Shown: positions 8,578-64,000, counted from the first letter of the stretch. The stretch is 64,000 nt of DNA from Thermodesulfobacteriota bacterium (GCA_040757775.1 JBFLWQ010000001.1:58917-122916), one strand, 5' to 3'. Translations and numbers: made by a program. The notes: generated by a model not told the origin, from the letters alone.

Positions 8578-8606
8578 TTGACAAACCATATTGAAGGTGT
8601 TAATAA
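8578..8606 (+). promoter_or_regulatory. sigma70-like promoter for the tRNA (TTGACA-17 nt-TAATAA)
   Basis: TTGACA at 8578-8583, 17-nt spacer, TAATAA at 8601-8606, about 28 nt upstream of the tRNA 5' end. Confidence 0.4.
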
Positions 8607-8634
8607 AACATCCTCGAAATCATTAAATAACCGA

Positions 8635-8711
8635 GCCCCCGTAGCTCAGGTGGATAGAGCAAGGGATTCCTAATCCCTGTGCCGCGTGTTCGAGTCACGC
8701 CGGGGGCACCA
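8635..8711 (+). tRNA. tRNA-Arg (anticodon CCT), 77 nt with encoded CCA
   Basis: Cloverleaf read by hand: acceptor GCCCCCG/CGGGGGC, D-arm GCUC/GAGC, anticodon stem AGGGA/UCCCU with loop UUCCUAA (anticodon CCU), T-arm GCGUG-UUCGAGU-CACGC, discriminator A, then CCA. Confidence 0.85.
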
Positions 8712-8763
8712 TCCCATCAATAATTTCCTACGTTTTATTCAATAGTTAGCTTGTTTACCCATT

Positions 8764-8790
8764 TTCCACACTGTTCCACAGAATTCCAAA
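8764..8790 (+). repeat. three direct heptamer repeats at exact 10-bp phasing (TTCCACA, TTCCACA, TTCCAAA)
   Basis: Copies at 8764-8770, 8774-8780 and 8784-8790, about 55 nt 3' of the tRNA. Same-face spacing suggests a protein-binding array. Confidence 0.4.
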
Positions 8791-8890
8791 AAGTCGCATA
8801 TTTTTGACAAAGTTTTGGGTCAGGATTGGGTCAAAAAAATTATGCCTTAAAACCGCCACTGTAATTGTTGAATTAACTGGAAGGAAATTT

Positions 8891-9919
8891 ATGGAGAGAA
8901 CAGTAATTTATTGTCCAAGGGACAAACAGAGAAAGTTTTTGGTGATCTGTATACAAACGTGTAAGTCTAAGTCCGGGTGCGAAAGTATAAGAAATATTTC
9001 TCAAGAAACAATCGACGGAGAGCTGGAGGACTACAAAGGAAAAGAGGAAACTGTCAATGCCGTGAGGCAGGAATGCTCTCTTGAAAAGGATGAAAATGGT
9101 ATCTGCTCTCACCTGTGGGGAATGTCGTCTTGTATTGAAAGAGTAAAGTGCTGTTGTGAGTGTGAAAAGGAATTCTGTAACTCTCGATGTAGCAACTCTG
9201 AACCGAAAAAAGCAACGGTACCTGCCGTGATGGAAAAAGGTACAGATATAGAGAGGTCTGTTTATTGCAAGGAAAAGGCAGAGGAACTTTGCAATCGGAT
9301 CGAGGATAGTTATTATGAGTTGGCAATGATCCTGCGCGAGATTGAGAAGGAACAGTATTACATGAATTGGGGATATTCAGGCTTTGTGGAGTACGTAAAG
9401 GAGTGTTTAGGTTTTAAGGAGCGAAAGGCAAGATATTTGATAGCGATTGCGGATATGTGCCAGCGGTATAATATCACGAAGGATGAAAGAATAGGAATTG
9501 AGTGGTCAAAACTTAAGGAGTTACCTGGAGTAATCAATGAGGAAAATAAAGAAGAATGGCTTGGCAAAGCCCGGGAGAGTACTACAACCAATTTACAGGA
9601 TGAGGTAAGAAAGGCACGTGGGATTAGTCCAGGTGAAATGAAGTCGTTTATTACTTTTTCCCTTGCAGAAGGGCAAAAGCTGGTGGTTGAGAGTGCGTTG
9701 GACCTGGCAGGAAAATTAACTGGATCTGAGGTAAGGTCATATCTTCTTGAGGTCATATGCCAGGAGTTTGTCGGTACCTATATGAATATGGACGAACTTG
9801 CAATTAAAGCATTTGAGAGGTCTCATGGACTACAAGAAGATGAAGTTCCCGAAACAGGGGAAAGTGGTATTAAAAGGTATAGACTACGTGAGGTTCAAAA
9901 GATGGATTCACGAGCGTGA
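8891..9919 (+). CDS. hypothetical Cys-rich protein (first gene of the phage-like region)
   Basis: The track starts at a TTG at 8804; ATG 8891 has RBS ggaaggaaa. The N-terminal half is Cys-rich (CxxC/CCCEC clusters). No integrase motifs are present. Confidence 0.4.
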   Translation: MERTVIYCPRDKQRKFLVICIQTCKSKSGCESIRNISQETIDGELEDYKGKEETVNAVRQECSLEKDENGICSHLWGMSSCIERVKCCCECEKEFCNSRCSNSEPKKATVPAVMEKGTDIERSVYCKEKAEELCNRIEDSYYELAMILREIEKEQYYMNWGYSGFVEYVKECLGFKERKARYLIAIADMCQRYNITKDERIGIEWSKLKELPGVINEENKEEWLGKARESTTTNLQDEVRKARGISPGEMKSFITFSLAEGQKLVVESALDLAGKLTGSEVRSYLLEVICQEFVGTYMNMDELAIKAFERSHGLQEDEVPETGESGIKRYRLREVQKMDSRA

Positions 9920-10130
9920 TAGATGGACGTGTAAAAACCCATTCTGTAGATCGAGAAAGAATCTGACCCTAGCTCATTATGTGCCCAGGTCGAAATTAAG
10001 GCTTGATACACAGGAAAACTGTTACACGCTCTGCGTTGAGTGCCATGAACTCGAGGAGAGAGGAGATCTCATTGTTGAAAAGGTTGGACGTAACATGTAC
10101 CGATTTTGCTATAGAAACAGGAATAAATGA
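9825..10130 (+). CDS. HNH endonuclease (free-standing)
   Basis: CKNPFCRSRKNLTLAHYVPRS...NCYTLCVECHELEE is an HNH/zinc-finger nuclease motif. The start is uncertain (ATG 9825, 9840 or 9903); it overlaps the end of the upstream gene. Confidence 0.55.
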   Translation: MDYKKMKFPKQGKVVLKGIDYVRFKRWIHERDRWTCKNPFCRSRKNLTLAHYVPRSKLRLDTQENCYTLCVECHELEERGDLIVEKVGRNMYRFCYRNRNK

Positions 10131-10230
10131 GATGTAACTTATTGATATTGTTGATATTTTATACTTGACAACCTGATCCCCATTCTGTATAATATCCTCA
10201 TAAATCCATAAAATGTAAGGGAGGGATATA

Positions 10231-11121
10231 ATGGTTAATTTAGAGTTTGGAATGAGCAAGGAAGAGGTTAAAAAGGAACTGCAGGAAGAACAAAAGAAGG
10301 CCAAGTATGAGACGATGGGCTATAACCAAAAAGATGTTATTAGTGCTCTTATAAAGGAAATGAGGCTTGGTAACGTTGAGAATGCTCTATATTGGCTTCA
10401 AGTAACACAAGAAGCAGGAGATAGCTGGTGGTATATAGGCAGAAGACTTCTCATTTTTACGTATGAGGACTGTTTCGGGGTAGAAGCAGCTATCTACTCT
10501 AATGCTGCGTGGCAGGCTCTCAATTTTACGAAAGACTCAGAGAATATCCTCTTTGCCTGGGTAGAAAGGCTGTGTAAGCTCACAAAGTTTTGGGAAGTCG
10601 AGGATGGTCAGGAGAGGGAATGGGCATGGCATCGTGGAAGGAAGGATATAGAAAGTGGTAAGTACAGACCAATTCCATCCTACGCAAAGGATCGTCACTC
10701 CAAATCGGGTTGGGATGAAGTTAAGGCTGGTGGGAGTTTTGATGAGAGGTTTAGCGGAACGCTCAGTGGGCGAATAAATATGATAAAGCAATTTAAGTTG
10801 AATGGTTGTTTACTGTCTGCAAGTTCAAACGAAAGTCCGGAGAAAGAACGTAATGAGAGACCTGACGACATAGAATTGTTTAGTCCAAAGGAAATTAATG
10901 GAAGATATCGTCCTCGCATAGTAGTTGACAATAGACCAGGAATTTACAGCGTTGAAAGTGAAACAACAAATGATGTGACCTATATTGTAGACCTAAACGA
11001 ACCAAGTTGTGAGTGCCCCCACCACCAGACAAGGAAAGCGATATGCAAGCACTTGAGGGCTGTTGATGGAGCGATCAGGAGAAAAGAGCTTGAGGATACA
11101 AGGAAAGGGAGGCTTGTATGA
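10231..11121 (+). CDS. SWIM zinc-finger protein
   Basis: C-terminal CECPHHQTRKAICKHL matches the SWIM CxCxnCxH pattern; RBS aagggaggg precedes the ATG. Confidence 0.5.
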   Translation: MVNLEFGMSKEEVKKELQEEQKKAKYETMGYNQKDVISALIKEMRLGNVENALYWLQVTQEAGDSWWYIGRRLLIFTYEDCFGVEAAIYSNAAWQALNFTKDSENILFAWVERLCKLTKFWEVEDGQEREWAWHRGRKDIESGKYRPIPSYAKDRHSKSGWDEVKAGGSFDERFSGTLSGRINMIKQFKLNGCLLSASSNESPEKERNERPDDIELFSPKEINGRYRPRIVVDNRPGIYSVESETTNDVTYIVDLNEPSCECPHHQTRKAICKHLRAVDGAIRRKELEDTRKGRLV

Positions 11122-11306
11122 GTTATGATGTTGGGATGAAACTTTTTATGAGGTATGGAAAGGATGTACTTGTGCATATGGCTAATCAATATGGTATCTG
11201 TCCAGATGGCTCTAAGAAAGATCTGGCGAAGCGAATAGCACAAGAAGAGGACAAGAGGTTTGATGAAAAGTGGCGCAAGATTATTAAGCCTCACGAAATA
11301 TATTGA
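11118..11306 (+). CDS. hypothetical small protein
   Basis: ATGA start/stop overlap with the upstream gene; 62 aa. Confidence 0.3.
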   Translation: MSYDVGMKLFMRYGKDVLVHMANQYGICPDGSKKDLAKRIAQEEDKRFDEKWRKIIKPHEIY

Positions 11307-11498
11307 TGGTGGAATATTTTTTTTACAAAGAGTACTTAGTAATTTATATGTTACTACCAAGTTGTTGGGAAGCAGAGGGATGTGGGAATGATGACAGACT
11401 CAAGGAGGGCTAACGATAGAGCTAACGCGCCGGAGCGTAGCGGAGGTCGCCGTTGAGCGATTTGTTATGCACGGCCTTTCATTCATTAAGGAGGATTT

Positions 11499-11894
11499 AT
11501 GAAATTGTATGATTATGTTTCAGCCTATGCAGAAAGGGGAGCTTGTACCTGTGGAAGATGCTATGATGCACCAGAGAACCCCGAAGAAACACAACCGGAC
11601 GGCCATACCGTTGACTTGACCTTCTTCAAGGTGGCAGCAAAGGGTGGCGACAAAGACACGTTTTTGTCTTTGGTTCGTGCTGAACATCCCGGCTGGCTGG
11701 ACGGCAAAGAACACAGCTATATTCATGTAGGCGCCGAGATGGGAGATCAGGGGATTGCCTTGATGACGATAGGGCTCGGTCATCTTTTGGGCGCATGGAA
11801 GGCCCTTTCACCGGATACGATGATGCCGTTTCTTCCTTCTGACTTAAAGCAGCAGATGGCAGGACGCGGCATGGTGAGTTTGCAGAGTGCATAA
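11499..11894 (+). CDS. hypothetical protein (locally GC-richer gene)
   Basis: RBS aaggagg + ATG; 131 aa; composition differs from neighbouring genes. Confidence 0.35.
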   Translation: MKLYDYVSAYAERGACTCGRCYDAPENPEETQPDGHTVDLTFFKVAAKGGDKDTFLSLVRAEHPGWLDGKEHSYIHVGAEMGDQGIALMTIGLGHLLGAWKALSPDTMMPFLPSDLKQQMAGRGMVSLQSA

Positions 11895-12109
11895 CAAGGA
11901 GTTAAGTTGCGAGCGAAGCGAGACAATCTTGAACGATTAGTTAGCGTTTGCACTGCCTATGTTAAAAATAAGGATGGTACAGCTATCATCGCAGAATATA
12001 GACTGCAACATGGTTTACGGTTTACATTATATGAAATGAAACAATGGATATTGCAGAATCCTAAAGTTGAAAGCGTGAAATTTTTAAAACGCTAACCAGG
12101 AGTTTAGAC

Positions 12110-12796
12110 ATGACCGAACTGTTTAGGAAATGCATGGTTATTGTCCCTCACTGTGATGACGAATGCATCTCCGTAGCTGGAACGATTGCGAAAATAAAGG
12201 AGGTTGGTGGAGAGGTCTCCGTTATTGTTCTGGTTGCAGGAGATATATTTTTTTGTCACGCGGAGGAGAAGGTGACTGCAGAGACAAGAATCAGAGAGTT
12301 TGAAAATGCTATGAAGTATCTTGGAGTGGATTATTATGATGTTCTGTATCGGACAGGAGACCTAGAGTCTAGGTTGGATACGATTCCGATAAGGGATATT
12401 GTTCACCGAATTGATCGACTGATTGTAGAGCATCAAGCAAGCACTGTGTTTATTCCAAGAAAGTCATTCCACCAGGACCATATCGTAGCTCATCAGGCTG
12501 CCTTCGCTGCTTGTAGACCAAGCCCGGATAAAGCTACACCACGGTATGTTCTGGAACACGAGTATCCGGCTAGCACATGGAATCTGTCTGGAGAAGATAG
12601 TTGGGCAAACTTCTTCGTTGATATAGAGGACTATATCGAAAAAAAAGTGAAGGCAATAGAATACCACCAGTCACAGTTGAGAAGTAATCTCCACACTATA
12701 AGTATTGAAACGTGTGTACTTTGGGCTAAAACAAGAGGGCGAATTGTTGGGATTGAGTACGCCGAAGCGTTTCGGCTATTGAGGTATGTAGGATGA
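12110..12796 (+). CDS. PIG-L/LmbE-family sugar N-deacetylase
   Basis: VIVPHCDDECISVAGTI... (PHxDDE motif) plus HQDHIVAH; RBS aggag. Confidence 0.65.
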   Translation: MTELFRKCMVIVPHCDDECISVAGTIAKIKEVGGEVSVIVLVAGDIFFCHAEEKVTAETRIREFENAMKYLGVDYYDVLYRTGDLESRLDTIPIRDIVHRIDRLIVEHQASTVFIPRKSFHQDHIVAHQAAFAACRPSPDKATPRYVLEHEYPASTWNLSGEDSWANFFVDIEDYIEKKVKAIEYHQSQLRSNLHTISIETCVLWAKTRGRIVGIEYAEAFRLLRYVG

Positions 12797-13479
12797 GGGT
12801 AACCATAAATCAGCCGTTGTTTTTTCAGAGATTGCACATGTTTAATCGTATTGCGGAATGCGATATCGCAGTGGTACTTCATTCCGCACAATTCGTGAGG
12901 AATGGAGACCAGCCTAAGCTGTTTCTGAAGTCTGCAAACCGTTTGCAGGAAATGAAGGTCCCTACCCTTCACGACGGAAGACAGTCAATAAAAGATACCA
13001 GGATTGATTACGGTCAGCAGTGGCAAAGAAAGATGATAAGGACAATAGAAATGAATTATGGAAAAACACCCTTCTTCTCTACCTACTTCGATGCGATTAA
13101 AAAGATTATATGTCAAACATACGCCTCTATAGGCGAATTAAACATTGCAACCCTCAGGTATGGCATGGCGGTCCTTGGCATCGACGTTAAGCTTGTACTA
13201 GATGATGAGCTTGATATTGATCCGTATGACAATCCGTCAGATTGGATGTTAAATATCTGCAAGGCACTCCACGCAACTGAATACCATTGTGGGAAGGTTG
13301 CTGCTGACAAGTACCTGGATTACGACAGGTTTCGTAAGGTAGGAATAAAGGTTTTTCCACAGGACTGGACAGCACGGGAGTACGAACAACCGTATAAGCC
13401 GTTTATTGGGAATCTGTCTGTAATTGACCTGCTGATGAATGTTGGCGGAGGAGATGCAGGAAAGGAGATGTTAAGGTGA
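12793..13479 (+). CDS. WbqC-like family protein (O-antigen-cluster associated)
   Basis: MRVTINQPLFFQRLHMFNRIAECDIAVVLHSAQF matches the WbqC-like N-terminus; ATGA overlap with the upstream gene. Confidence 0.55.
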   Translation: MRVTINQPLFFQRLHMFNRIAECDIAVVLHSAQFVRNGDQPKLFLKSANRLQEMKVPTLHDGRQSIKDTRIDYGQQWQRKMIRTIEMNYGKTPFFSTYFDAIKKIICQTYASIGELNIATLRYGMAVLGIDVKLVLDDELDIDPYDNPSDWMLNICKALHATEYHCGKVAADKYLDYDRFRKVGIKVFPQDWTAREYEQPYKPFIGNLSVIDLLMNVGGGDAGKEMLR

Positions 13480-14069
13480 ATAAATCGTGGGATATAGGAT
13501 ACTTGTATGATGAGGTCTTTGAAAAGGAAGGAGATAGCTACAAGTCACTGTTGTGGGGAGGACAGAACCGACAGTTTGTAACGTATAGGACAATCTGTCA
13601 GGAGATCGATTTCAACGGTACTTCGATATTGGATGTCGGCTGTGGATTTGGTGACTTCTACGAGTTTTTGTATGAAAGGACTGGATGGTTGAAACGGTAT
13701 GTAGGGATAGACATTAAAAAGGAGTTTGTGGATATTGCCCGAAAACGATACTGTACAGGCCCGGAGTTAATGTTTGCCTGCTGTGATATTGACTCAATGC
13801 CTAAAGTAAAGGTTGATTATGCCCTTGCGATAGGAACGCTGGCAACGAAAGATATATTTGATGATTTGATACCTAAAATGTGGAAGATCGCCGATCTTGG
13901 AATCGTTTTTACGTGCCTGAGTGATATAGATTATAAAGGATCACTGGTTTCGTACCATCCCGACAGGATCCTTGCGACCTGTTTTGTGCTGTCACCCCAT
14001 GTGGTAATGAGGCATGATTATGGGGAACAGGAAGCAACCTTTTTTGTATTTAGAAAAGAAAGACGTTAG
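13476..14069 (+). CDS. class I SAM-dependent methyltransferase
   Basis: Motif I ILDVGCGFGDF; GTGA start/stop overlap (GTG start). Confidence 0.6.
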   Translation: MNKSWDIGYLYDEVFEKEGDSYKSLLWGGQNRQFVTYRTICQEIDFNGTSILDVGCGFGDFYEFLYERTGWLKRYVGIDIKKEFVDIARKRYCTGPELMFACCDIDSMPKVKVDYALAIGTLATKDIFDDLIPKMWKIADLGIVFTCLSDIDYKGSLVSYHPDRILATCFVLSPHVVMRHDYGEQEATFFVFRKERR

Positions 14070-14287
14070 TCAAAACAAGCTTACAAAAGGGAAAAACATT
14101 GTTTATACGTGTATTTTATGATGGAAAAGAAACTCGATATTGAAACAAATAGACAAAAACTACTGATTTTTTGTAATATTTAATAATATCAAGCACTTAA
14201 GGAACGCACACAATCGCCTACAATGATTTTTTTTATCGAACCTCTTATTATCCCATTCACTGGATACGACTTGAGGAGGTAAACTGA

Positions 14288-14881
14288 ATGGAAGTGATCA
14301 CAGCACCGCCAAGGGCATCTAGTAGGACGGCAGTTTTTCAGAAGATGTTTGATATATGCAAGTCTGTAAAAGCGGCAGGACCTTACCTGATTGTTGAGAT
14401 AGGAACATTCAGGGGAGATTTTGAGGGAGATGGAGGCAGCACTTATTTTTTTGCTAAGTGGCTTTCTGAAAATGGAGGTGGGAAACTTCACAGCGTAGAC
14501 AATAACCCACAAGCAATTGAGATTTCCAGAAACGTATGCAAAGAATTTGATCGGTACATTGAATGGCACAACATGAGGTCTGAGGATTTTTTGAGAACAT
14601 TTCATGAGCATATTGACATGGTTTACCTCGATAGTATCGGATGGCGTAAGGATGGTGTAGATCAGTTTACGTGCCAGTATCAGCATTTGAAGGACTGGAT
14701 GCTTGTAAAGGATCGGTTGAATGGAGCGTTAGGGATTGATGATACCGATGGACTAAAGTATGGAAAAGGAGCGCAGATTGTAGCGTATTTGAACGGGAAA
14801 GGAGTGCCATGGCAGACCGTATACTGTGTCGAGCATGGAAAATGGCCTTGTGGAGTGGTTGCGGAATGGAGGTATAGATGA
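14288..14881 (+). CDS. SAM-dependent O-methyltransferase-like (family 3/TylF-like)
   Basis: LIVEIGTFRGD ... MVYLDS resembles class I O-methyltransferase motifs; RBS gaggagg. Confidence 0.45.
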   Translation: MEVITAPPRASSRTAVFQKMFDICKSVKAAGPYLIVEIGTFRGDFEGDGGSTYFFAKWLSENGGGKLHSVDNNPQAIEISRNVCKEFDRYIEWHNMRSEDFLRTFHEHIDMVYLDSIGWRKDGVDQFTCQYQHLKDWMLVKDRLNGALGIDDTDGLKYGKGAQIVAYLNGKGVPWQTVYCVEHGKWPCGVVAEWRYR

Positions 14882-15078
14882 GGAGAATAAGGAGGATAGA
14901 GATGAAAAGCAAAGATTCAAAAAGAAAGGTCTCAAAAATGATTAAGCCAAAGTTTCGGAAGTATCAGGAGCTTACAGTTGAACAACGAACTGATCCTGAT
15001 TATCGGGTAAAGGAGTTAATGAAGCTCAGTGGAGATGAATCCTTCATTGGATGTACCAAGTGCCATCATTGCCGATAG
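14878..15078 (+). CDS. small basic hypothetical protein
   Basis: 66 aa, Lys/Arg-rich, C-terminal CTKCHHC. Confidence 0.25.
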   Translation: MRRIRRIEMKSKDSKRKVSKMIKPKFRKYQELTVEQRTDPDYRVKELMKLSGDESFIGCTKCHHCR

Positions 15079-15098
15079 AGAAAAGGAAGATGAACTAA

Positions 15099-16535
15099 GT
15101 GAGACTGTTGCTAGTGCCCCATACAGGGCTAAGAAATATCCATAGCGACTCGAACTATCTGTTGTTTCTGGACCTGGCTCGTTACCTTACCGAAAGTGGT
15201 CATTGGTGCTACATGCTGGTACCAGGCTTTGCTAAAGAAAAGGTATACAGAATGAAAAGGTTGATGTACGTATTCCATGACTTCATTCGATATGATTATT
15301 ACACGGCATACAATCTGATCGATGAGGATTGGTTGATAAAGACGTTTTCGAGAAGGTATGGGAGCGAGATCATAGATGCGATTATCACATCTAAAGCATC
15401 AGTTGTCCCACAGTGGCAGGCGATCCTTTCTGATTATGTACGGTGCAGGGATATTGAGTGTTGTATAATTGAACCAGGAGTTTTCGACCGGGAAAGTGGT
15501 GGAGCATTACGTGGGGACATCGGACTTGCACTGATGAGTCTTGGCTATTCTCAAGCAACGACAGTATTTTTGACCGAGTACGAGAGGGAGCGGGCAAAGA
15601 AACTTGCGTCGGAGTATGTATCGGCTGCACGTATCAAGAAGATCCACGAACAGGCAGTTGTGAGGTCTGTTGGAATCGATACTGAATATATTGATAAGAA
15701 GACTGAAGGGATCACAAGAGCGAAAAAATTCACACTCATATATGCGGCTAGGCTAAATTCGGTGAAGAAACCGGATAGGATTCTGGAGCTGTATGACACG
15801 ATGTACCGGAGCGGAAGGAATGTGAATATCGTTGTAACTACCGGGACTCAGCAGCTTCCTGTCAAACGACGTATGGATAAAATTCTGAAAGGAAGACCTG
15901 AAATTGTGGTTCATTACGGATGTCCAAAGGATGACTACCTTAAGATTGCCAAATCAGCTCATGCTTTCGTATGCTGGAGTGAATCGGAAGGCTTCCCTGT
16001 AGGGTATTACGAGCAGATGTATTTAGGCGCGGTAGGAATTTTCCCCAAAAAGAAGTGGGCTTTGAAGCAGTTGCCGCCTGAGTATAAATGGATGTTCTCG
16101 AGAAAAGAAGAAGCATACTCGATGCTCATGGAGATATACGACCACTATGACAAGATTTCGCAGGAAATGGATTGGATGAAGGAATTCATTGCCAAAAGTT
16201 ATGGATATAGAGAGGTATATTCGATACTCGAAAAGGCAGTATCTGGCAGGTTGAAATTGAAGAACTCGTATATCAGGCCGAATGGAATCAGGCAACTGCT
16301 CGACACGATTGTCCCAAGTCTACCGGATGAGTTCAGCCTCGATCTGGTAATCAGGTCTCTCGGCAAATACGGCAGGTGCTTTCTTGAAGACAGGTATGCG
16401 AGAGGAGGAACGTTCAGGTATCCGTCTGACTATGATATCCACCGAATGTTGACGGATGAATATGGATGTATCGACCTGTGCAATAGAAACAGACCAGTTT
16501 ATAGAAAAGGAGACATATATGGCAAGAAAGGCTAA
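15099..16535 (+). CDS. GT-B fold glycosyltransferase-like protein (GT4-like)
   Basis: 478 aa; an E-x7-E motif near the C-terminal lobe (SESEGFPVGYYEQ); GTG start. Confidence 0.4.
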   Translation: MRLLLVPHTGLRNIHSDSNYLLFLDLARYLTESGHWCYMLVPGFAKEKVYRMKRLMYVFHDFIRYDYYTAYNLIDEDWLIKTFSRRYGSEIIDAIITSKASVVPQWQAILSDYVRCRDIECCIIEPGVFDRESGGALRGDIGLALMSLGYSQATTVFLTEYERERAKKLASEYVSAARIKKIHEQAVVRSVGIDTEYIDKKTEGITRAKKFTLIYAARLNSVKKPDRILELYDTMYRSGRNVNIVVTTGTQQLPVKRRMDKILKGRPEIVVHYGCPKDDYLKIAKSAHAFVCWSESEGFPVGYYEQMYLGAVGIFPKKKWALKQLPPEYKWMFSRKEEAYSMLMEIYDHYDKISQEMDWMKEFIAKSYGYREVYSILEKAVSGRLKLKNSYIRPNGIRQLLDTIVPSLPDEFSLDLVIRSLGKYGRCFLEDRYARGGTFRYPSDYDIHRMLTDEYGCIDLCNRNRPVYRKGDIYGKKG

Positions 16536-17286
16536 AAAGGATAACGAGACTCCTGTTGGAAAGATAGATCATCCCCATCCAGAGACGATATTGATAGATG
16601 TCGGCATGATAGACAGAGCTGAGTGGAACCCTAACGTAATGAAGGACAGAAAGTTTAATAAACTGGTTGAACAGATTAGGGAAGTGGGGATTCTCGAAAA
16701 TATTGTGGTGAGAAAAACTGAGAAGGATAGGTATGAGGTGGTAAGCGGACATTGGAGATATGATGCTGCGAAAGTCGCAGGTTATGAAAAAGTCCCATGT
16801 GTTATAAGAGAAGATTGGGATGATGATAAAGCAAAGATACAGAATATGAGGTTTAATGTCCTCAAAGGAGATATAGACCCGCTCAAGTTCAGTAAGATGT
16901 GGGACGACATAGCGAAGAGCTATGATAATGAAGAGCTTAAGGCGTTGATGGGATTTGTGGAAGACAGAGAATTTGAGAGACTGTATATTGACATCAAAAA
17001 ATCGTTACCAGACGAAGTAGCTGGTAAGCTTGATAAGGCTAAGAATGAAATCAAGACAGTAGACGATCTGTCCAATATCGTTAACGAGTTGTTTACGAAG
17101 CACGGAGATACATTGGACAGGTCATATATGATATTCAGCTATGGAGGCAAGGAGCATCTGTATATTGTGATGGGCAAGGAGTTACGAAAGAAAATGGAGT
17201 TTGTGAAGGAAAAAAGCTCTGCGGAGGATAGGGATATTAACGAAGTAATGCTTGAAATGATGAGGGACGGAGGAACTGGACAATGA
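16519..17286 (+). CDS. ParB-like nuclease domain protein
   Basis: ATG 16519 with RBS aaaggag (the track's 16456 start lies inside the upstream gene). ILIDVGMIDRAEWNPN...VVSGHWRYDAAKVAGYEKVPCVIRE matches the ParB/Srx N-domain. Confidence 0.55.
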   Translation: MARKAKKDNETPVGKIDHPHPETILIDVGMIDRAEWNPNVMKDRKFNKLVEQIREVGILENIVVRKTEKDRYEVVSGHWRYDAAKVAGYEKVPCVIREDWDDDKAKIQNMRFNVLKGDIDPLKFSKMWDDIAKSYDNEELKALMGFVEDREFERLYIDIKKSLPDEVAGKLDKAKNEIKTVDDLSNIVNELFTKHGDTLDRSYMIFSYGGKEHLYIVMGKELRKKMEFVKEKSSAEDRDINEVMLEMMRDGGTGQ

Positions 17287-52566: not shown

Positions 52567-52596
52567 GGGGAATGGCATAAGTAAAGGAGGGGTGTA

Positions 52597-53016
52597 ATGC
52601 CAAGGATGAAGAAAGTTGTAGAAGAAATCCTTACGAACCATGGGCTGATAGATAAGTTTAGAAAGGATGAGTTTTTCCATGCAAGAATTGAAAGTCCTGG
52701 GTTTATGAGACTTGTGATTGAAAGATTGGGTGGAGGACGGGTATCTGTTGCTCACTACTACGAGCAGAACGGTGACCTCATGGCGGACCCTGACATCGTG
52801 TTTGATATGATGGATCATGATTGGGTACCAGTGGAGTACACACAGCATAATCTTGGGATTTATCAAAGAGTTGTACATGATAAAGGTGGTCAGGAGTTTG
52901 TAGACATAAAATTGCAGAAAAGTATTGCAAGTTTTGCGAATGGTCTATGGGCAAAGAACTTGAAACATCAAGGCTTCGCTGATCCTAAGCAATCAGTAGT
53001 AGCGGAGAGGTTGTGA
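52597..53016 (+). CDS. hypothetical protein
   Basis: RBS aaggagggg + ATG; 139 aa. Confidence 0.3.
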   Translation: MPRMKKVVEEILTNHGLIDKFRKDEFFHARIESPGFMRLVIERLGGGRVSVAHYYEQNGDLMADPDIVFDMMDHDWVPVEYTQHNLGIYQRVVHDKGGQEFVDIKLQKSIASFANGLWAKNLKHQGFADPKQSVVAERL

Positions 53017-53020
53017 GATT

Positions 53021-55138: not shown

Positions 55139-55169
55139 AAAAAAAGAGGCTGTAGGTTTGTTGGAGAAG

Positions 55170-56672: not shown

Positions 56673-56698
56673 TAAACCACAATAGAGGAGGTAACAAG

Positions 56699-57625
56699 AT
56701 GGAGAAAAGATTTGAGCTAGAAAAGGTAAAAGGGCAGTATCAAAATTTCCCAAAGATTGGTGACATAGTCTGGTGGTCGTTAAGTAACATAAAGGTTAGG
56801 AGAGATGATATTGAGAATATGTTCAGGCAGGTTGGCCTCGGGGAAAACTACTTGCCGGCGGTAATAACGAATGATTCCGCTTACAGGAAGGCAATCAAGT
56901 ACAATCGAAAAGTATCTGATCCGCAGCTTCTCAGGTTGATCTTGGACGATAGTGACATAATCGTCCACGGCATTGTCAACGAAAAGGCCGATATGGAAAA
57001 CATGAACCTCGACTATGCGCTTGAGGCAAGGGTGTCTCTGGACAAAGGAACTGGAGTATTCCACAGTACGACTGAGACAGATAAAACCAAGAAGATCCAT
57101 GAAGACTATGACTTTTACATGCTGTATTACACAACGGATGATGTCAGGAGTATAGTCGTCCGGGTGATAAGGAGCCTGAACCCAACAGTAATCCGGGAAG
57201 GCGGTGGTGTCTACTTTGTGCCTGTTACGTATGAGGATACCGTCAAGAAACTTGAGCAGTTGATCCCAATGATGTCGTGGTCTTCTGTCGTGTATTCGCT
57301 CCCTATTATTGACACGGAGAAGACAAGGAAGAACATCTTTGCGGTTTATACGACCCAAGTTGAGAAGGAGATAGAAAGAGTTGTAGCTGAACTTGAAGGG
57401 TTCGATAACCCCACTGTTGATGTATTGAAAAACAGGGTTGAGAAATTTAATGCTATTCGTTTAAAGGCGGAAATGTACGAGGATCTGATAAAGATGTCAG
57501 CAGATGGGATTAGGTCCAGAATAGATTCGGCTGTTGATGCTGTGACGAAAATAATGTTGGGAACAAAAGGCGATGCGGAGCAATGTAGTCTCAGTATTGG
57601 CAACGTTGCAGGAGGAGCACTATGA
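56699..57625 (+). CDS. hypothetical protein co-transcribed with MoxR–VWA
   Basis: RBS gaggaggt + ATG; 308 aa; no motif recognised. Confidence 0.35.
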   Translation: MEKRFELEKVKGQYQNFPKIGDIVWWSLSNIKVRRDDIENMFRQVGLGENYLPAVITNDSAYRKAIKYNRKVSDPQLLRLILDDSDIIVHGIVNEKADMENMNLDYALEARVSLDKGTGVFHSTTETDKTKKIHEDYDFYMLYYTTDDVRSIVVRVIRSLNPTVIREGGGVYFVPVTYEDTVKKLEQLIPMMSWSSVVYSLPIIDTEKTRKNIFAVYTTQVEKEIERVVAELEGFDNPTVDVLKNRVEKFNAIRLKAEMYEDLIKMSADGIRSRIDSAVDAVTKIMLGTKGDAEQCSLSIGNVAGGAL

Positions 57626-57795
57626 CACTAGCCGAGATGGGGGAAAAGATACTTGCTAGCGATCTGGATGATGAAACGAAAGCTGAGTTGCTTGAGGTGT
57701 TGTGTGAGTATTCACGAAGGGCAAAGGAAGAATGGCATGGGTATGACGATAATTGTACATGCAAGGCGTGTCAGGCTGAACAGACTGGACCATAG
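57622..57795 (+). CDS. hypothetical small protein (not in ORF track)
   Basis: RBS ggagga, ATGA-type coupling; 57 aa, C-terminal CTCKAC. Confidence 0.3.
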   Translation: MTLAEMGEKILASDLDDETKAELLEVLCEYSRRAKEEWHGYDDNCTCKACQAEQTGP

Positions 57796-57893
57796 GGTTT
57801 TCTTACCGATGAAAATTCCTGACTCTAAATGACAAAACAAAGGAAAAACAGGAGGGTAAACTCTTACCCCCTACCCTACCATTCCCCCAACTT

Positions 57894-57908
57894 TGCAAAC
57901 GGTTTGCA
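57894..57908 (+). promoter_or_regulatory. perfect palindrome TGCAAAC-G-GTTTGCA upstream of the clamp gene (candidate operator)
   Basis: 7-bp inverted arms around a single nt; followed by TAGAATGAAAATAAG (57931-57945), a -10/leader resembling P1/P2. Confidence 0.35.
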
Positions 57909-57966
57909 GCTAAAATAATTTGACATTGGATAGAATGAAAATAAGTTAAGGAAAACGAGGTGATAG

Positions 57967-59043
57967 ATGAAAATTAAAATTGGAAGAAAGGAATTAAAAG
58001 GCAAATTGCCTATGCTTAAAAAGGTAGCTGGTAGTAAAGCATCGCTGTCTATCCTTACGCATAGTCTTCTTGAGGTTAAAGATGATGGCATATTCATTAT
58101 TGCGACAAACCTTGAAACAGGTATGTGCATAAAGTTAAGAAATGTTGAGGTGCATGAAAAAGGACAGGTAGTTTTAGATCATGCTATGTTATTGAAAATC
58201 GCTACAAACGTTAATAGTGAATATCTTGAAGTCGAAACAGGTGATGACTGTGCTCATGTTCATGCCGGGACATATAAGGCTAAGATGCCTATAAACTTTA
58301 CACCTGAGGACTTTCCGAAAATGCCTGATATGCCAGAAGATTGCATGAAACCTATACTGAAAAGTGAGTTTCTAGAGGCAGTCGGGAAGGTCATGCATGC
58401 ACTTCCTTCAGATGCATACTACGCTAATGTTAGGTTTAATGGTGTTTATGTTGGTAAGGATGTGGTTGCTATGGATGGTCATAGAATGGCAGTGGTTAGA
58501 AAGGATTTTGGTTTGGGAAATATTCTTGTTCCCAAAGACTTTATGGATAATCTCCAGTGGTTAGAAGACGAGGAAGGCGATGAGATAAAAGTTACAGTTA
58601 ATAAAGGTACGATAGTTTTTGAGTGTGGTGACATTATATTGTTTGGAAGATTGATAGAGGGGGAATACCCTGATTATGAAAGCATTGTCTCAGATGAAAC
58701 TACGAAAACCGTAGTTTTTGAGAGAAGAGAACTGGCAAGAACTATAAAAATGTTAAAGGCTGTAGGATCGTTCAGCAGGATCGTGATTGAGTTTGGAGAT
58801 GGTGATATGGGTAGCGTTAATATAAGGTCATTTGATAATTCTGGCGTAGGAACAAATGAAATCCCTGTCACATATATTGGCAATGAATCGTTGGCGATAG
58901 CGTTCAACGGCAAGTATCTTCTGGATATGCTTAATGTTGGAAATGGAAAGGAAGAGTTTGTTGTAAAGATGAGCGATAATAGGTCTGTTGTCATCGTTGA
59001 GGAAGAAGATGCAGTATTTTGCATAATGCCTATGTCTCTGTAA
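57967..59043 (+). CDS. dnaN: DNA polymerase III beta subunit (sliding clamp)
   Basis: 358 aa; N-terminus MKIKIGRKELKGKLPMLKKVAGSKASLSILTHSLLEV... parallels DnaN; three-domain length. Confidence 0.6.
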   Translation: MKIKIGRKELKGKLPMLKKVAGSKASLSILTHSLLEVKDDGIFIIATNLETGMCIKLRNVEVHEKGQVVLDHAMLLKIATNVNSEYLEVETGDDCAHVHAGTYKAKMPINFTPEDFPKMPDMPEDCMKPILKSEFLEAVGKVMHALPSDAYYANVRFNGVYVGKDVVAMDGHRMAVVRKDFGLGNILVPKDFMDNLQWLEDEEGDEIKVTVNKGTIVFECGDIILFGRLIEGEYPDYESIVSDETTKTVVFERRELARTIKMLKAVGSFSRIVIEFGDGDMGSVNIRSFDNSGVGTNEIPVTYIGNESLAIAFNGKYLLDMLNVGNGKEEFVVKMSDNRSVVIVEEEDAVFCIMPMSL

Positions 59044-59061
59044 GAATAATTGGAGAATAAA

Positions 59062-59496
59062 ATGGAGATTCAAATAAAAGAGGGAATGAAAATAACCAAA
59101 CCTCAAAAAGTAGCAAAAGTACTTCAATTGATTTTAAACGGAGAGAACGATTTAGATCAAGACAAGGAACACTTTTGGGTAGTAGGGCTCACTGCAGCTA
59201 GCTGCATTAAATATGTCGAATTGGTAACTCTTGGCATATTAAACCAAAGCGTAGTACATCCTCGGGAAATTTTTAGAATGGCGATCCTCAAAAGTGTTGT
59301 TGCACTAATTGTTGGACATAACCATCCATCAGGAAAAGTAGCTCCATCTGATACTGATAAACGTATAACAGAGGTGATAGCGTCTGCTGGTGATATAATT
59401 GGTATTAAGCTGGTAGATCACATAATAATTGGCAATAACACAAAAAGATATTACTCGTTTAAGGAGGATGGTTTTGAAGATAATAGGCAGACATAA
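59062..59496 (+). CDS. RadC-like JAB/MPN domain protein
   Basis: GHNHPSGKVAPSDTDKRIT is the JAB HxHPxG...PSxxD signature. ATG 59062 with RBS tggag (the track's TTG at 59050 rejected). Confidence 0.7.
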   Translation: MEIQIKEGMKITKPQKVAKVLQLILNGENDLDQDKEHFWVVGLTAASCIKYVELVTLGILNQSVVHPREIFRMAILKSVVALIVGHNHPSGKVAPSDTDKRITEVIASAGDIIGIKLVDHIIIGNNTKRYYSFKEDGFEDNRQT

Positions 59497-59731
59497 ATGT
59501 GTAGCAGGAGCCACTATCACAGAAAGCTATGATGAAAAAAGAGAAGGATACAAGGACATATTATATAGACGTTTCACTGCCACTATACGAGGCTGGCAAA
59601 ACTGGAAACTTTTCGAGGGGTATATAGAAGAAGATACCTTTGAAAAAGTAGTAAATAAGGCAATAGAAATTCGAGTTCGTATAGATAGCGGAGATGAAAC
59701 CGTTTTTGAACACAAGGGATTTTGGCTATAA
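59468..59731 (+). CDS. hypothetical protein
   Basis: ATG after aaggagg; start ambiguous (the track's 59429 start overlaps the RadC-like gene). Confidence 0.25.
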   Translation: MVLKIIGRHKCVAGATITESYDEKREGYKDILYRRFTATIRGWQNWKLFEGYIEEDTFEKVVNKAIEIRVRIDSGDETVFEHKGFWL

Positions 59732-59760
59732 GCAGGAAAGTGAAGGAGGTTAGGATAGCT

Positions 59761-60006
59761 ATGGATATTTATGACTTGGATCACAACAAGATGGTTGTTC
59801 ACGCTCCAACAACGGACGTTCTTGACATGCTTCACGCACGTGCCTACAAGAGGACTGTCTTCTGCCTGGATATGGATGACGTTGAATGGCTAAAGGAAGA
59901 ACATGAAAGTGCCGATGGAATGACAAAGGGGCAAATTGATCTGATCCTGAAGGCTCTTGAGGGGATAAATGATGGTTTTGCGTTTCTTAACCTGATGGTT
60001 GAATGA
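59761..60006 (+). CDS. hypothetical protein
   Basis: ATG 59761 with RBS gaaggaggt. Confidence 0.3.
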   Translation: MDIYDLDHNKMVVHAPTTDVLDMLHARAYKRTVFCLDMDDVEWLKEEHESADGMTKGQIDLILKALEGINDGFAFLNLMVE

Positions 60007-60061
60007 TTATGATGGACAGAACCAAGAACAATATGGTTTGCTATGAGAAAGGAAATAACCC

Positions 60062-61636
60062 ATGATAAATGATACTTTTTATCCTACTCCAAGACCATTA
60101 ATAGAAAAGATGGTAGGCAAAATAACACGAAAAAGCGGATTAATGATCCTCGAACCTAGTGCCGGAAAAGGGGATATTGTTGAATATTTACAAAACAACT
60201 GGGATTATAGGGGTATTCAAATTGACGCTATAGAGATAGATGAGACCCTACGAGCTACATTGTGGGGGAAATATATTAATGTAGTTGATAGTGATTTTCT
60301 TAACTTTGTTGGGCTAGATAAATACGATGTAATAATAGCAAATCCTCCCTTTGATGAAGGGGATAAACATTTACTCAAAGCTATTGAGATAATGTATTGT
60401 GGGGAGATAATTTTTCTCTTGAATGCAGAAACCATTAAAAACCCATATACAAATACTAGAAAAGAACTTGTAAAGCAGTTAAATAAATTAGGGGCAGAGA
60501 TTGAATATATCCAAAATGGTTTTATGGACGCAGAGAAAAAAACCGGTGTTGAGGTAGCTTTGGTTTATATCAAGATAGTAAAGAGTGTTGAAGAAGATTT
60601 ATTTGAGGGAGCAAATGATAAAGCCAAGGATACGCAAGAAACGATAGAGACCCCTTATGAAATAGCAACGCTGAACAATATACAAAACATGGTGGATGAT
60701 TTCAACAGAGTTGTTTCCGTGGGAAGTGAAACCCTGATTAACTACTACAAAAACTACAAACACATATCGAAGTTCATAAAGTTAGCCAGCAAAGATGGAA
60801 AATGCCAGGAATACTATAATGATGAAACCTTAACTCAGATCATGCAAGACAAGCTAAATGTTTTTTTAAGAGAGGTAAGAAAGTCGTATTGGGAAGAGGT
60901 GTTAAATCTCGACGTAATTAAAAATAGACTGACCAGAGCAAAAAGAGATATTTTTTATCATCAGTTAAAGGCTCGGTCTTATATGGATTTTACAGAAAAC
61001 AATATTAGGACTTTTGTCCTCAATATAATTAATGGATTTGGGAAGACCCTCACAGAGGCAGTTGTCGAGCTATTTGACATGATGACAATAAAGCATTCAT
61101 GGGATAAGAATAAACTTTACGAAGAAAACATCCATTATTTTAATGGATGGCAAACCAATAAAGCCTTTTATGTAAATCAGAAAGTCATTTTGCCCTATTT
61201 CTATTTTTGGGACAATATATTCAATAAGTGGAGAATGGGCTATGATACAGAGCGAAAGTTAAGTGATATTGATGTGGTTATGAATTATTTTGATGGTATG
61301 AATAATCGTTATTTGTCAATAGCTCAAGCATTAAGAGGGGCTTTTGATAGGGGACAAACCAAGAAAGTGCTATCTACCTATTTTGAGATTACGGTCTATA
61401 AAAAGGGGACAATACATCTGGTTTTTAGGAATGAAGGAATGAGGCGTAGATTTAATATTACTGCTTGTAAAGGCAAACATTGGCTCCCTGCAGATTATGG
61501 GGTTAAGCCTTTTGAACAACTGCCGGCTCCTGAGCAAGAAATAGTAATGTCGTTTGAAGGGAAAGAAACTTATGATAAAAATGTTGGTGATTGTTTTTAT
61601 ATTCCTACGATAGAATCTAATCTGTTAACAATATAA
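60062..61636 (+). CDS. N6-adenine DNA methyltransferase
   Basis: Motif I LEPSAGKGDIV, motif IV IIANPPF; 524 aa (extra C-terminal region likely target recognition). Confidence 0.7.
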   Translation: MINDTFYPTPRPLIEKMVGKITRKSGLMILEPSAGKGDIVEYLQNNWDYRGIQIDAIEIDETLRATLWGKYINVVDSDFLNFVGLDKYDVIIANPPFDEGDKHLLKAIEIMYCGEIIFLLNAETIKNPYTNTRKELVKQLNKLGAEIEYIQNGFMDAEKKTGVEVALVYIKIVKSVEEDLFEGANDKAKDTQETIETPYEIATLNNIQNMVDDFNRVVSVGSETLINYYKNYKHISKFIKLASKDGKCQEYYNDETLTQIMQDKLNVFLREVRKSYWEEVLNLDVIKNRLTRAKRDIFYHQLKARSYMDFTENNIRTFVLNIINGFGKTLTEAVVELFDMMTIKHSWDKNKLYEENIHYFNGWQTNKAFYVNQKVILPYFYFWDNIFNKWRMGYDTERKLSDIDVVMNYFDGMNNRYLSIAQALRGAFDRGQTKKVLSTYFEITVYKKGTIHLVFRNEGMRRRFNITACKGKHWLPADYGVKPFEQLPAPEQEIVMSFEGKETYDKNVGDCFYIPTIESNLLTI

Positions 61637-61663
61637 TTGTAAAGGACATGGGGTGGTGGATTA

Positions 61664-61843
61664 ATGAAGCGCAAGTTAAAGGTGATAGAAAGGTACTACG
61701 ATAACGAATTTCGAGGTGGGGGTCACTCTGAAATCAGGCTAAAGGGTAAATGGCTTTTGAAGTTTGGGTTCAAGCCAGGAGCTAAGGTGGAAGTGGTGCC
61801 TGAGGATGGTAGGTTGGTTATTCAGTTGATAAAAGATGGTTGA
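61664..61843 (+). CDS. SymE-like / AbrB-fold small protein (not in ORF track)
   Basis: 59 aa; IRLKGKWLLKFGFKPGAKVEVVPEDGRLVIQLI resembles the SymE-family core (LxGxWLxxxGFxxGxxVxV...GxLxI); RBS ggggtggtgga. Confidence 0.35.
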   Translation: MKRKLKVIERYYDNEFRGGGHSEIRLKGKWLLKFGFKPGAKVEVVPEDGRLVIQLIKDG

Positions 61844-61912
61844 TGTTTCCGATAGATTCCACTTGACATAAAGTATAAAACATATTACCTTCTGTTGCAG
61901 GAGGTAATTAGA

Positions 61913-62380
61913 ATGCGGAGGATGCGAATGTATGGTAATCCAAAGGTACTAGCGGAGAGGTTAAATGCGGTTTATGGTAATATGGAGTCTCCTGTCTATC
62001 TAAGAATTAAAGTGAAAGGGTTTTCTGATGTTCTTGTTTTGAAGGCTCGCTCTAATAGTTCCTGGATGGTCTCTAACGAAAGTATGGCTCCTGATATGTT
62101 CAAGGATTATGATAATTCTGAATTTTCTGGATATGATGAGAATGAGGTAATATTACAGCTTGAGGATCGAATTAGCCGAATATGGTTGGATGACAAGACA
62201 GTGTTTAGTACCTGGGCTGACTTTATTGACTGGCTTGATGATCTTGATGTCCGTGAACCAGAGTTCAGGACCACGGTTCACCTGCCCATGTCTGTTACTG
62301 TTGCACTGAGAGCATTGAAGGATAAGACCGGTAAGGATATGAGGCATATAATCTGTGATGCTGTAAAAGCGTACTTGTAG
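61913..62380 (+). CDS. hypothetical protein
   Basis: ATG 61913 with RBS gcaggaggt (the track's TTG at 61895 rejected). Confidence 0.35.
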   Translation: MRRMRMYGNPKVLAERLNAVYGNMESPVYLRIKVKGFSDVLVLKARSNSSWMVSNESMAPDMFKDYDNSEFSGYDENEVILQLEDRISRIWLDDKTVFSTWADFIDWLDDLDVREPEFRTTVHLPMSVTVALRALKDKTGKDMRHIICDAVKAYL

Positions 62381-62393
62381 AGGGGAAAGGAAT

Positions 62394-62654
62394 ATGGATT
62401 CTAATAAAATTTATCGTTTAAATTATATTATTGAAAAAAACATTAAGATTCCTGAAATACAGGAGTTTCAATTCCCTTTCACTAAGATGGAAATTGATGA
62501 TTCTTTTTTTATTCCATTACTTGATTGGGTATCTATGGGGGTGGTAAATAGGCGGAGTGGTTTTTGGGAATGCGTACAAAAATATTCGCCTAAAGGCAGA
62601 GAATATGAAGTGAGAACTGTCGATGGTGGATTTAGAGTATGGAGAATAAAATAA
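62394..62654 (+). CDS. hypothetical protein
   Basis: RBS gggaaagga + ATG; 86 aa. Confidence 0.3.
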   Translation: MDSNKIYRLNYIIEKNIKIPEIQEFQFPFTKMEIDDSFFIPLLDWVSMGVVNRRSGFWECVQKYSPKGREYEVRTVDGGFRVWRIK

Positions 62655-62675
62655 GGAAGAAAAGAAACGATTAAA

Positions 62676-63002
62676 ATGGTAAGAGATAGCCTGTGCTACG
62701 AGGTTGTTGAGCAGAAGGATATAAGTTATGCCGGGACACCACGAATAGCGCTCAAGGCTGTTGTTCAGGCAGATGGTATTCCAAGCAAAGAGCAGCTAGA
62801 ACAAACAGCTAGTCAGATATATCGCCAGTGTATCAAGAAGATGAAGGTACGCAAAAAGAAGCGTGATGAAGTAGAGGTGACTGTATTTATATATCTGCCT
62901 GATATGGATACGGCTTGGTCCGCCTACGGAGTGGCAGAATTCAAGGAGACTGATGGTCTTAAGAAATTTTGGATTAATGATAGTGTGCTTATCTCTCTCT
63001 GA
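62676..63002 (+). CDS. hypothetical protein
   Basis: 108 aa. Confidence 0.3.
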   Translation: MVRDSLCYEVVEQKDISYAGTPRIALKAVVQADGIPSKEQLEQTASQIYRQCIKKMKVRKKKRDEVEVTVFIYLPDMDTAWSAYGVAEFKETDGLKKFWINDSVLISL

Positions 63003-63028
63003 TAGGTCCTGACTCTTATATTTCACCG

Positions 63029-63235
63029 TTACCTCTTTTTAATCCTGTCTATCTCACCTTTTAGCATCTTTTCCTTTACAGCCTGTATTTCCTCAAGTAC
63101 TTCTGCTTTGGTGATTATGCCTTTCCTATCTAGAACGTTTATAAGTGCCTCGGTTGTTACCATTTCTGACACCAAAAGGTCTTCAGTACTCACCATTTCT
63201 CGAATGTCTAATTTTTCTGCCATGGGGTACCTCAT
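63029..63235 (-). CDS. hypothetical small protein (minus strand)
   Basis: 68 aa; RBS (revcomp) precedes ATG at 63233-63235; strand switch relative to the upstream phage genes. Confidence 0.35.
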   Translation of the reverse strand: MRYPMAEKLDIREMVSTEDLLVSEMVTTEALINVLDRKGIITKAEVLEEIQAVKEKMLKGEIDRIKKR

Positions 63236-63320
63236 TTATCAGAAAAGTAGGAGTGCCTGATGTCTATCAAACTTTCCGTTAGAGTAACACAAACTCTTGA
63301 TTCTTGTTCCCCCGTTACGT

Positions 63321-63938
63321 TTATTTATCAAGAACATTTGCGATTAATATTATTCCAGGATAGTAGCAACCCTTATATTCTAGTTGACGCACAATCTTGG
63401 GAAAACACCAAGCAATTGCATGATCTTGTCTTGGAAGAATCATATTTATGAAGGCTTGGATATCATTGTCCAGGTTTGTTGCTTCCTCTTTTTTGATACA
63501 GGGTTCAATGAAAGCAACACCGACCCCAATACCACCATTGCAACGGACACGTTTAATGTCATCAATTGCTTTAAGGATTGTCTTTTCTATCTGACTCGAA
63601 GCCTGTAAAGTCTTTAAATTAACTCCATCGTACTTCGTTTCAATAGACCACTCTTCCTCACTGGTGCCTATCCATAAATCGACTCTTCCCTTATAGATTT
63701 CTTCTGATTCAGCAGTCACCTTTTTTTCATCCGAATATGCCTCTACGGCCACAAAGCCTGAACGCCAAGCTGCAGCAGCAAGCATACTAGTATTTGCTCT
63801 TTCATTGTACCAGTAAGGTGCATCACCTTTACAAACTGTTACATATTTCTCAACTACCCAAATCCAGTCTTTCAAAAGAAAACCCCAAGGCTCTAACGAT
63901 GCATTATTAATAAGATAACCATCAATTGATTGAACCAT
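63321..63938 (-). CDS. hypothetical protein (minus strand)
   Basis: 205 aa; RBS aggaggtag (revcomp of 63939-63950) upstream of the start. Confidence 0.4.
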   Translation of the reverse strand: MVQSIDGYLINNASLEPWGFLLKDWIWVVEKYVTVCKGDAPYWYNERANTSMLAAAAWRSGFVAVEAYSDEKKVTAESEEIYKGRVDLWIGTSEEEWSIETKYDGVNLKTLQASSQIEKTILKAIDDIKRVRCNGGIGVGVAFIEPCIKKEEATNLDNDIQAFINMILPRQDHAIAWCFPKIVRQLEYKGCYYPGIILIANVLDK

Positions 63939-64000
63939 GGAAACTACCTCCTATTTTCGTTTCCTATGTTTCCCCCACAACCCCAACCCCTTTTCCCTCG

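Follow-up and report, generated by a model that had tools for sequence, protein, structure and literature searches.

A siphovirus-type prophage probably integrated at tRNA-Arg(CCT) in a Thermodesulfobacteriota genome, with integrase and attR expected beyond the analysed window

The DNA analysed here is a 64,000-nt stretch, referred to as the window, from a metagenome-assembled genome (MAG) of a Thermodesulfobacteriota bacterium (GCA_040757775.1, JBFLWQ010000001.1:58917-122916), in which ordinary bacterial genes (1-8493) are followed by a tRNA-Arg(CCT) gene and then, with no gap in the order, by phage genes. Our analysis indicates, with a probability of about 0.7, that the region downstream of the tRNA is the left 55 kb of a siphovirus-type prophage which is integrated at tRNA-Arg(CCT) and whose right attachment site (attR) and integrase are located outside the window. 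By analogy with related phages, the whole prophage probably comprises 80-95 kb. tRNA genes are classic insertion sites of phages, and the integrase is commonly encoded adjacent to the tRNA. An earlier reading of this DNA (the original prediction) had likewise proposed an integrated prophage that continues beyond the window; the junction between phage and host DNA at the tRNA's 3' end is upheld, as similarity to other tRNA loci stops at the CCA, while the extent of the element was probably underestimated.

The tRNA-Arg(CCT) gene was compared with tRNA loci retrieved from IMG/VR with a 24-mer, which found one contig (L009), and from JGI metagenomes with the tRNA 3' end, the latter yielding at least 120 loci. 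It is identical at 76-77 of 77 positions to chromosomal tRNA loci that are flanked by host genes in metagenomes, and the upstream leader is partly shared. In all of the at least 120 JGI loci only the tRNA and up to ~18 nt of the upstream leader resemble the window, and both there and in the IMG/VR locus L009 the similarity ends exactly at the CCA. The most similar loci (76-77/77) possess an intrinsic terminator hairpin with a T-run no more than ~10 nt past the CCA; in the window no intrinsic terminator was found past the CCA (8712-8890), and phage DNA stands in its place immediately past this position. The start of the phage-like DNA had been set at 8578, which falls within the promoter region of the tRNA; foreign DNA begins at 8712 at the latest. 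As large phages often carry tRNA genes, the tRNA might itself be phage-encoded, with the host-phage junction located upstream at 8494-8634. This appears exceedingly improbable, since chromosomal loci with host genes around them match the tRNA as well as some of its leader, and the fetched parts of the related phages contain no tRNA genes. Apart from tRNA-Arg(CCT), Rfam identified no non-coding RNA in the window.

Further comparison points to the part of the tRNA that is used for integration. In at least 15 metagenome loci (L022, L023, L028, L040, L055, L056, L066, L073, L076, L084, L092, L093, L104, L117 and L122), all that is present of the tRNA is its final 45 nt, the anticodon loop through the CCA, and ARAGORN sees no full tRNA there. 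In L055 and L056 this 45-nt part is followed by the same native terminator and downstream sequence as in intact loci, and the two are, as judged from these alignments, attR-type scars whose host bacteria have near-identical tRNA loci. In three cases a tyrosine integrase adjoins the tRNA or its fragment: 15 nt after the full tRNA in L017, 41 nt after the tRNA fragment in L122, and, in L028, co-directional with the fragment and ending 26 nt upstream of it. By these arrangements tRNA-Arg(CCT) is a real tyrosine-integrase target in metagenomes, and the recurrence of the 45-nt fragment marks it as a hot spot that is often used for integration in bacteria of anaerobic sediments. A far-side integrase beside the displaced fragment, as would be expected for the element described here, has a precedent for the same 45-nt core in L028. 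In several cases the 45-nt partial copy has the native terminator of the tRNA behind it. In L009 (IMGVR_UViG_3300033149_003957, 1-5359), the same tRNA-Arg(CCT) is immediately followed by a small element with genes for a 589-aa protease-capsid fusion, a replication-like protein and a protein resembling small terminases. This element has no integrase at its tRNA-proximal end and looks like a phage satellite.

Based on these loci, the predicted att core of the window corresponds to the block from the anticodon loop to the CCA, and the sequence expected to recur downstream as a repeat in the same orientation (plus strand) is TTCCTAATCCCTGTGCCGCGTGTTCGAGTCACGCCGGGGGCACCA. The original prediction had proposed the tRNA's 3' end as the att repeat in the form of a 24-mer; the choice of the tRNA 3' part stands, while the repeat is better given as the 45-nt block. 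The 24-mer GTTCGAGTCACGCCGGGGGCACCA (8688-8711) occurs only once in the window even when three mismatches are permitted, the 45-nt core has no second copy in the window with three mismatches allowed, and comparing the k-mers of 8494-9000 with those of the remaining window yielded nothing above chance, the longest shared word being 13 nt. As predicted, attR is thus not contained in the window. We propose that a tyrosine integrase of the phage would have recombined the 45-nt core of the phage attachment site (attP) with the tRNA gene, so that the phage copy of the core would now complete the tRNA at the left attachment site (attL), while the displaced host copy and the native terminator would reside at attR, beyond the window. 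In the conserved gene order of the phage, attP would have been positioned between a RusA-type gene and the gene for a Cys-rich protein, and the unseen right part would carry replication and recombination genes, the integrase and the 45-nt repeat.

The first intergenic region harbors short repeats which may take part in this process. A triplet of TTCCACA repeats in 10-bp phase had been reported 55 nt downstream of the tRNA; the phasing was confirmed, while the triplet consists of two exact copies and one TTCCAAA, and the first TTCCACA copy begins 53 nt past the tRNA. TTCCACA is not enriched in the window (14 copies as opposed to 12.95 expected), and the phased triplet was seen in none of 100 shuffles. 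The phased repeats (8764-8790) may be binding sites of the integrase or of a regulator. Together with the pair of TTGGGTCA motifs and the inverted repeat they may represent integrase arm-type sites, but could equally be operator or promoter elements of the first gene.

Genes were called by Pfam, PHROGs and tblastn over all open reading frames (ORFs), including small ORFs in gaps. Between 8891 and 63002 every credible gene is located on the plus strand, with short gaps between them, in agreement with the one-strand array of phage-like genes proposed before. Among the ORFs of at least 80 aa and the small gap ORFs of these 55 kb, Pfam and PHROGs detected no integrase, resolvase or serine recombinase, rve/DDE transposase, excisionase or CI/Cro-type repressor, confirming the lack of a tRNA-adjacent tyrosine integrase, and no intergenic gap is long enough to hide an integrase. 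Similarly, no temperate-phage switch (repressor/anti-repressor, excisionase) was found in the window. Most simply, the integrase is absent from the window because the window ends before the prophage does. The first gene beyond the tRNA was correctly described as a Cys-rich unknown: its product matched nothing in Pfam or PDB, whether searched singly or as a profile. Its candidacy as a recombinase or integrase was rejected, as it lacks a recombinase signature and is kept in non-integrated relatives. The HTH_17 gene, considered as an excisionase, was likewise dismissed, as the same gene precedes the portal gene in a circular, non-integrated relative (L007).

How much of the phage is unseen can be estimated from its relatives. 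Megablast against 50,697 phage records revealed no nucleotide-level relative, and an IMG/VR scan with the methyltransferase gave no match. The closest relative found is scaffold_82 of ENA ERZ23498665 (97,882 bp; L006 and L007), whose 7,539-bp end repeats its start at 100% identity and which is a complete circular or circularly permuted phage genome of 90,343 bp. A second relative, L011, was found in IMG/VR with a hand-made degenerate pattern, and a third is the cultured Vibrio phage vB_VpS_PG28 (PG28). Homologues of the methyltransferase on two long contigs (L132, L133) were rejected as relatives, since they occur in unrelated plasmid- or island-like contexts. In the three independent relatives L006, L011 and PG28, a homologue of the Cys-rich gene directly follows RusA in a co-directional array; thus, we infer that it is the boundary of RusA and the Cys-rich gene at which the phage is cut by the host junction. 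These 83- to 94-kb relatives or their kin encode RusA, a DnaC-like loader, DnaB helicase, primase and DNA polymerases, none of which the window contains, and the prophage therefore probably runs on for tens of kb rather than ~1 kb. By analogy, about 20-40 kb of the phage, a right part with replication and recombination genes, probably lies beyond the window.

The sole strand switch was predicted for the last 1 kb, where the only two minus-strand genes are indeed found; its assignment to a lysogeny module gained no support, both ORFs matching no family. A phage contig sharing the methyltransferase (L005) has a plus-strand block after the same methyltransferase and then a minus-strand block with a single-stranded-DNA-binding protein, primase and helicase, indicating that the switch at 63 kb does not necessarily mark a lysogeny module. 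Alternatively, the prophage might end at ~63,010 and the minus-strand genes (63029-63938) might already be host DNA, since the plus-strand block stops at 63002 and the 205-aa protein of the last gene, without a phage family match, has its sole homologue among the genome contigs (26% identical) in a Polyangium chromosome. We regard this as very improbable: neither a copy of the tRNA 3' end nor a direct repeat above chance is present in 62-64 kb, the element would lack replication, RusA and lysogeny functions altogether, and L005 turns to a minus-strand phage block after the same methyltransferase.

Several observations weigh against an integrated prophage that continues beyond the window. None of attR, integrase, excisionase and repressor was seen in the window. 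The search for a strain with an empty site found none: the closest homologue of the GGDEF protein upstream of the tRNA is 88% identical and resides on a 1.4-kb contig, the next is 44% identical, and the metagenome scan with the tRNA 3' end retrieved none of the same species among the matches listed (at least 120 loci). The examined parts of the relatives lack an integrase; in PG28 none is annotated genome-wide, and its gene content is that of a lytic phage, so that lysogeny may be unusual for this lineage. Finally, the sequence derives from a MAG, and a misjoin is possible. The latter points would fit an assembly chimera in which a short sequence common to both, at the tRNA, caused the genome of a free phage (lytic or temperate) to be assembled onto the host contig: the 55 kb contain no lysogeny genes, and the relatives look like free phages of 83-94 kb, PG28 being without an annotated integrase. 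Such a chimera is, however, quite unlikely, as it requires a tRNA-like sequence (attP or a phage tRNA) exactly at the boundary of RusA and the Cys-rich gene, where the relatives have neither. In addition, the break falls exactly where integrative elements enter this tRNA, and the G+C content of the phage (42-44%) matches that of the host flank (42.7%) as opposed to 33-38% in phage relatives.

It might also be considered that the phage is truly integrated but possesses no integrase of its own, being either grounded or decaying, or else dependent on the integrase of another element, which would account for the lack of an integrase beside the tRNA, its usual place, as well as anywhere in the 55 kb. 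We consider this unlikely, since the genes appear intact, with no obvious pseudogenes and with three inteins in frame, at least one third of the expected genome is unseen, and the integrase of L028 is situated beside the displaced fragment of the same core. An integrated prophage whose attR and integrase follow beyond the window therefore remains our preferred reading.

Table 1. Coordinates of features in the window, with the evidence or remarks that apply to each.
Feature	Position	Strand	Evidence or remark
Host flank: phosphofructokinase with receiver domain, UbiA, class IV aminotransferase, chorismate-binding enzyme, GATase, PAS-GGDEF (pabC/pabB/pabA-like genes)	1171-8493		Pfam
Response-regulator receiver and phosphofructokinase fusion	1171-2655	-	Host protein
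tRNA-Arg(CCT), proposed attL, intact	8635-8711	+	ARAGORN and Rfam
Predicted att core, 45 nt, anticodon loop to CCA	8667-8711	+	Expected to recur at attR
Junction and first intergenic region, 179 bp	8712-8890	+	Phased repeats, inverted repeat
Phased repeats TTCCACA (8764), TTCCACA (8774), TTCCAAA (8784)	8764-8790		10-bp phase
TTGGGTCA, two copies	8815, 8826		11-bp phase; first intergenic region
Inverted repeat, 11 nt	8798-8808 / 8830-8840		First intergenic region
First phage gene, Cys-rich	8891-9919	+	phrog_17202; conserved phage family
HNH endonuclease	9798-10130	+	Pfam, PHROGs
MgsA_C-like/SWIM protein	10231-11121	+	Pfam, PHROGs
Sugar-modification cassette 1: PIG-L deacetylase, WbqC-like, two methyltransferases, GT1	12110-16535	+	Pfam
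ParB-like nuclease	16456-17286	+	Pfam, PHROGs
Putative small terminase	17669-18280	+	By position only
Large terminase (TerL)	18246-20186	+	tblastn; no Pfam or PHROG match
HTH_17 gene	20726-20998	+	Just before portal
T4 gp20-type portal	21108-24752	+	Portal_T4 173.5 bits (cut-off 22.9)
Portal intein 1, 319 aa	21333-22289		HNH_3 endonuclease domain
Portal intein 2, 392 aa	23100-24275		Intein_splicing match, HTH motifs
Prohead protease, S77, gp21-like	27154-28446	+	Peptidase_S77 66.3 bits (cut-off 27)
Major capsid protein, Gp23 family	28453-29592	+	Gp23 227.8 bits (cut-off 24.4)
Sugar-modification cassette 2: two GT9, GT1, methyltransferase	29594-34389	+	Pfam, PHROGs; within head module
Head-tail adaptor	31243-31860	+	Inside cassette 2 region
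Siphovirus-type tail: neck, tail-completion, Ig-domain tube, distal tail and fibre proteins	34394-45160	+	PhageMin_Tail; phrog_5, 2175, 4176, 5417
Tape measure, 1131 aa	36798-40193	+	
DUF5675 protein, AdoMet-decarboxylase-like protein, membrane protein	45398-46901	+	Pfam, PHROGs
Early/accessory genes including DUF6908, vWA, DUF6744, RadC	47667-63002	+	
HATPase-like protein	49078-50505	+	
bpMoxR AAA+ ATPase	53021-55138	+	With LAGLIDADG intein
MoxR intein, 341 aa, LAGLIDADG	53339-54361		Right after Walker B motif FLDE
Sliding clamp	57967-59043	+	
DUF4942 methyltransferase	60062-61636	+	
SymE-like ORF, 59 aa	61664-61843	+	SymE toxin/AbrB-fold match, E = 7e-10; just after DUF4942 methyltransferase
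Minus-strand ORFs, 68 aa and 205 aa	63029-63235, 63321-63938	-	Convergent with plus-strand block; no family match

The phage region (Table 1) encodes a full virion set of a tailed phage (Caudoviricetes), comprising TerL, portal, protease, capsid, connector, tail tube and tape measure, and its long ORFs lie close together, obvious pseudogenes being absent. By its Pfam scores the head module is of the T4 type (gp20/gp21/gp23), the cut-offs given for Portal_T4 and Gp23 being the Pfam gathering thresholds, and the capsid protein shares 30-39% identity with T4-type capsid proteins in the phage collection. TerL was identified by its 35-36% identity over 94% of its length to the annotated TerL of Vibrio SIO-2-like phages. 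The genes at 45398-46901 may constitute a lysis region. The bpMoxR ATPase is followed by vWA and DUF6744 proteins, as in MoxR-vWA systems.

All three inteins are in frame within their host genes. The MoxR intein begins with Ala instead of Cys or Ser, which suggests from its sequence a non-canonical splicing class. An intein is also carried by the relative L007, where it resides in the terminase and not in the portal. Of the two sugar-modification cassettes, the first is collinear with positions 7711-12976 of PG28; the second is inserted between the capsid gene and the genes of the head-tail connector, and a glycosyltransferase gene of the GT9 family directly after the capsid gene is also present in the IMG/VR relatives L001-L003. 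Taken together, the gene content of the two cassettes suggests that the virion may be glycosylated. Less ordinary than the missing integrase are the three inteins and the virion-associated glycosylation genes.

With regard to the host flank, the PAS-GGDEF diguanylate cyclase is 100% identical to MEW6613908.1 (NCBI, Thermodesulfobacteriota MAG), and the first phage gene corresponds to the consecutive entry MEW6613909.1 (locus tag AB1401_00335). One 266,592-bp contig carries the NCBI entries with which the GGDEF protein and two phage proteins agree at 100% identity, and MEW6613978.1 is among the proteins of this contig. The locus-tag number makes the first phage gene approximately the 67th feature, and thus about 60 kb of the contig would precede the window and well over 100 kb would follow it. 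The GC skew is positive across 8-62 kb. The fusion of a response-regulator receiver with a phosphofructokinase in the flank is an unusual domain combination.

What has been found is a new, divergent phage in a well-known arrangement; the integration pattern is a textbook one, and the finding as such is essentially ordinary. For this tRNA it provides a precise predicted att core of 45 nt, spanning the anticodon loop through the CCA. Thermodesulfobacteriota are a phylum rich in sulfate reducers, for which, to our knowledge, few phages have been described. The cultured and the circular metagenomic members of the lineage that shares the RusA/PIG-L/glycosyltransferase/ParB/TerL arm show no integrase. 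It might be speculated, if doubtfully, that a member of a siphovirus lineage of 80-100 kb has turned temperate by means of an int-attP cassette directed at tRNA-Arg and placed between RusA and the Cys-rich gene or, more radically, that it is maintained without an integrase of its own. Should the integration at the tRNA be confirmed, the window's phage would count as a large temperate one of Thermodesulfobacteriota, in a lineage of which the known relatives look lytic. The cargo, that is, two portal inteins, one MoxR intein and two sugar cassettes, one of which is inside the head module, may deserve more attention than the att question.

The integration site may be compared with the tRNA islands compiled in Islander (Hudson, Lau and Williams 2015, PMC4383910), where a 3' tDNA fragment accompanies 3760 of the 3919 islands. 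As in islands of this type with an anticodon-centred attP (PMC4383910), the intact tRNA of the window is followed at once by foreign phage DNA, and in metagenomes 45-nt displaced 3' fragments of the same tRNA occur with adjoining tyrosine integrases. In contrast to such islands, the window itself shows neither the displaced fragment nor an integrase, the latter not being in the common tRNA-adjacent place. With respect to the phage, scaffold_82 resembles the window in its TerL (42%), the T4-type portal (55%) and the DUF4942 methyltransferase (63%), and here too an HTH_17 gene precedes the portal. It shares with L011 (IMG/VR UViG_3300031578_009495, 94.3 kb) and the window a Cys-rich/HNH/SWIM block in the same order at 43-60% amino acid identity, with 44-60% for the HNH and SWIM proteins. 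In both relatives, however, this block is internal, with RusA upstream, and the G+C content is 37-38%; scaffold_82 moreover contains no host DNA and has an intein of its own in TerL.

PG28 (MT735630.2, 82.7 kb), which belongs to the SIO-2-like Vibrio siphoviruses of about 80 kb, likewise has all its genes on one strand, a TerL with 35% identity over 94% and a collinear left arm in which RusA, present in PG28, is followed by the Cys-rich-family gene, PIG-L, WbqC and methyltransferase, GT1, ParB and TerL; both phages further have the tape measure and the DUF5675 protein in common. It differs in having no annotated integrase and no host junction and in encoding its own Pol I, DnaB and primase. 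The portal, protease and capsid of the window have no tblastn match in PG28, and the T4-type head set appears to be unshared. Judged by these protein comparisons (24-35% identity, limited to the left arm, TerL, tape measure and DUF5675), the phage of the window is a distant mosaic relative of the SIO-2-like siphoviruses rather than a member of the group.

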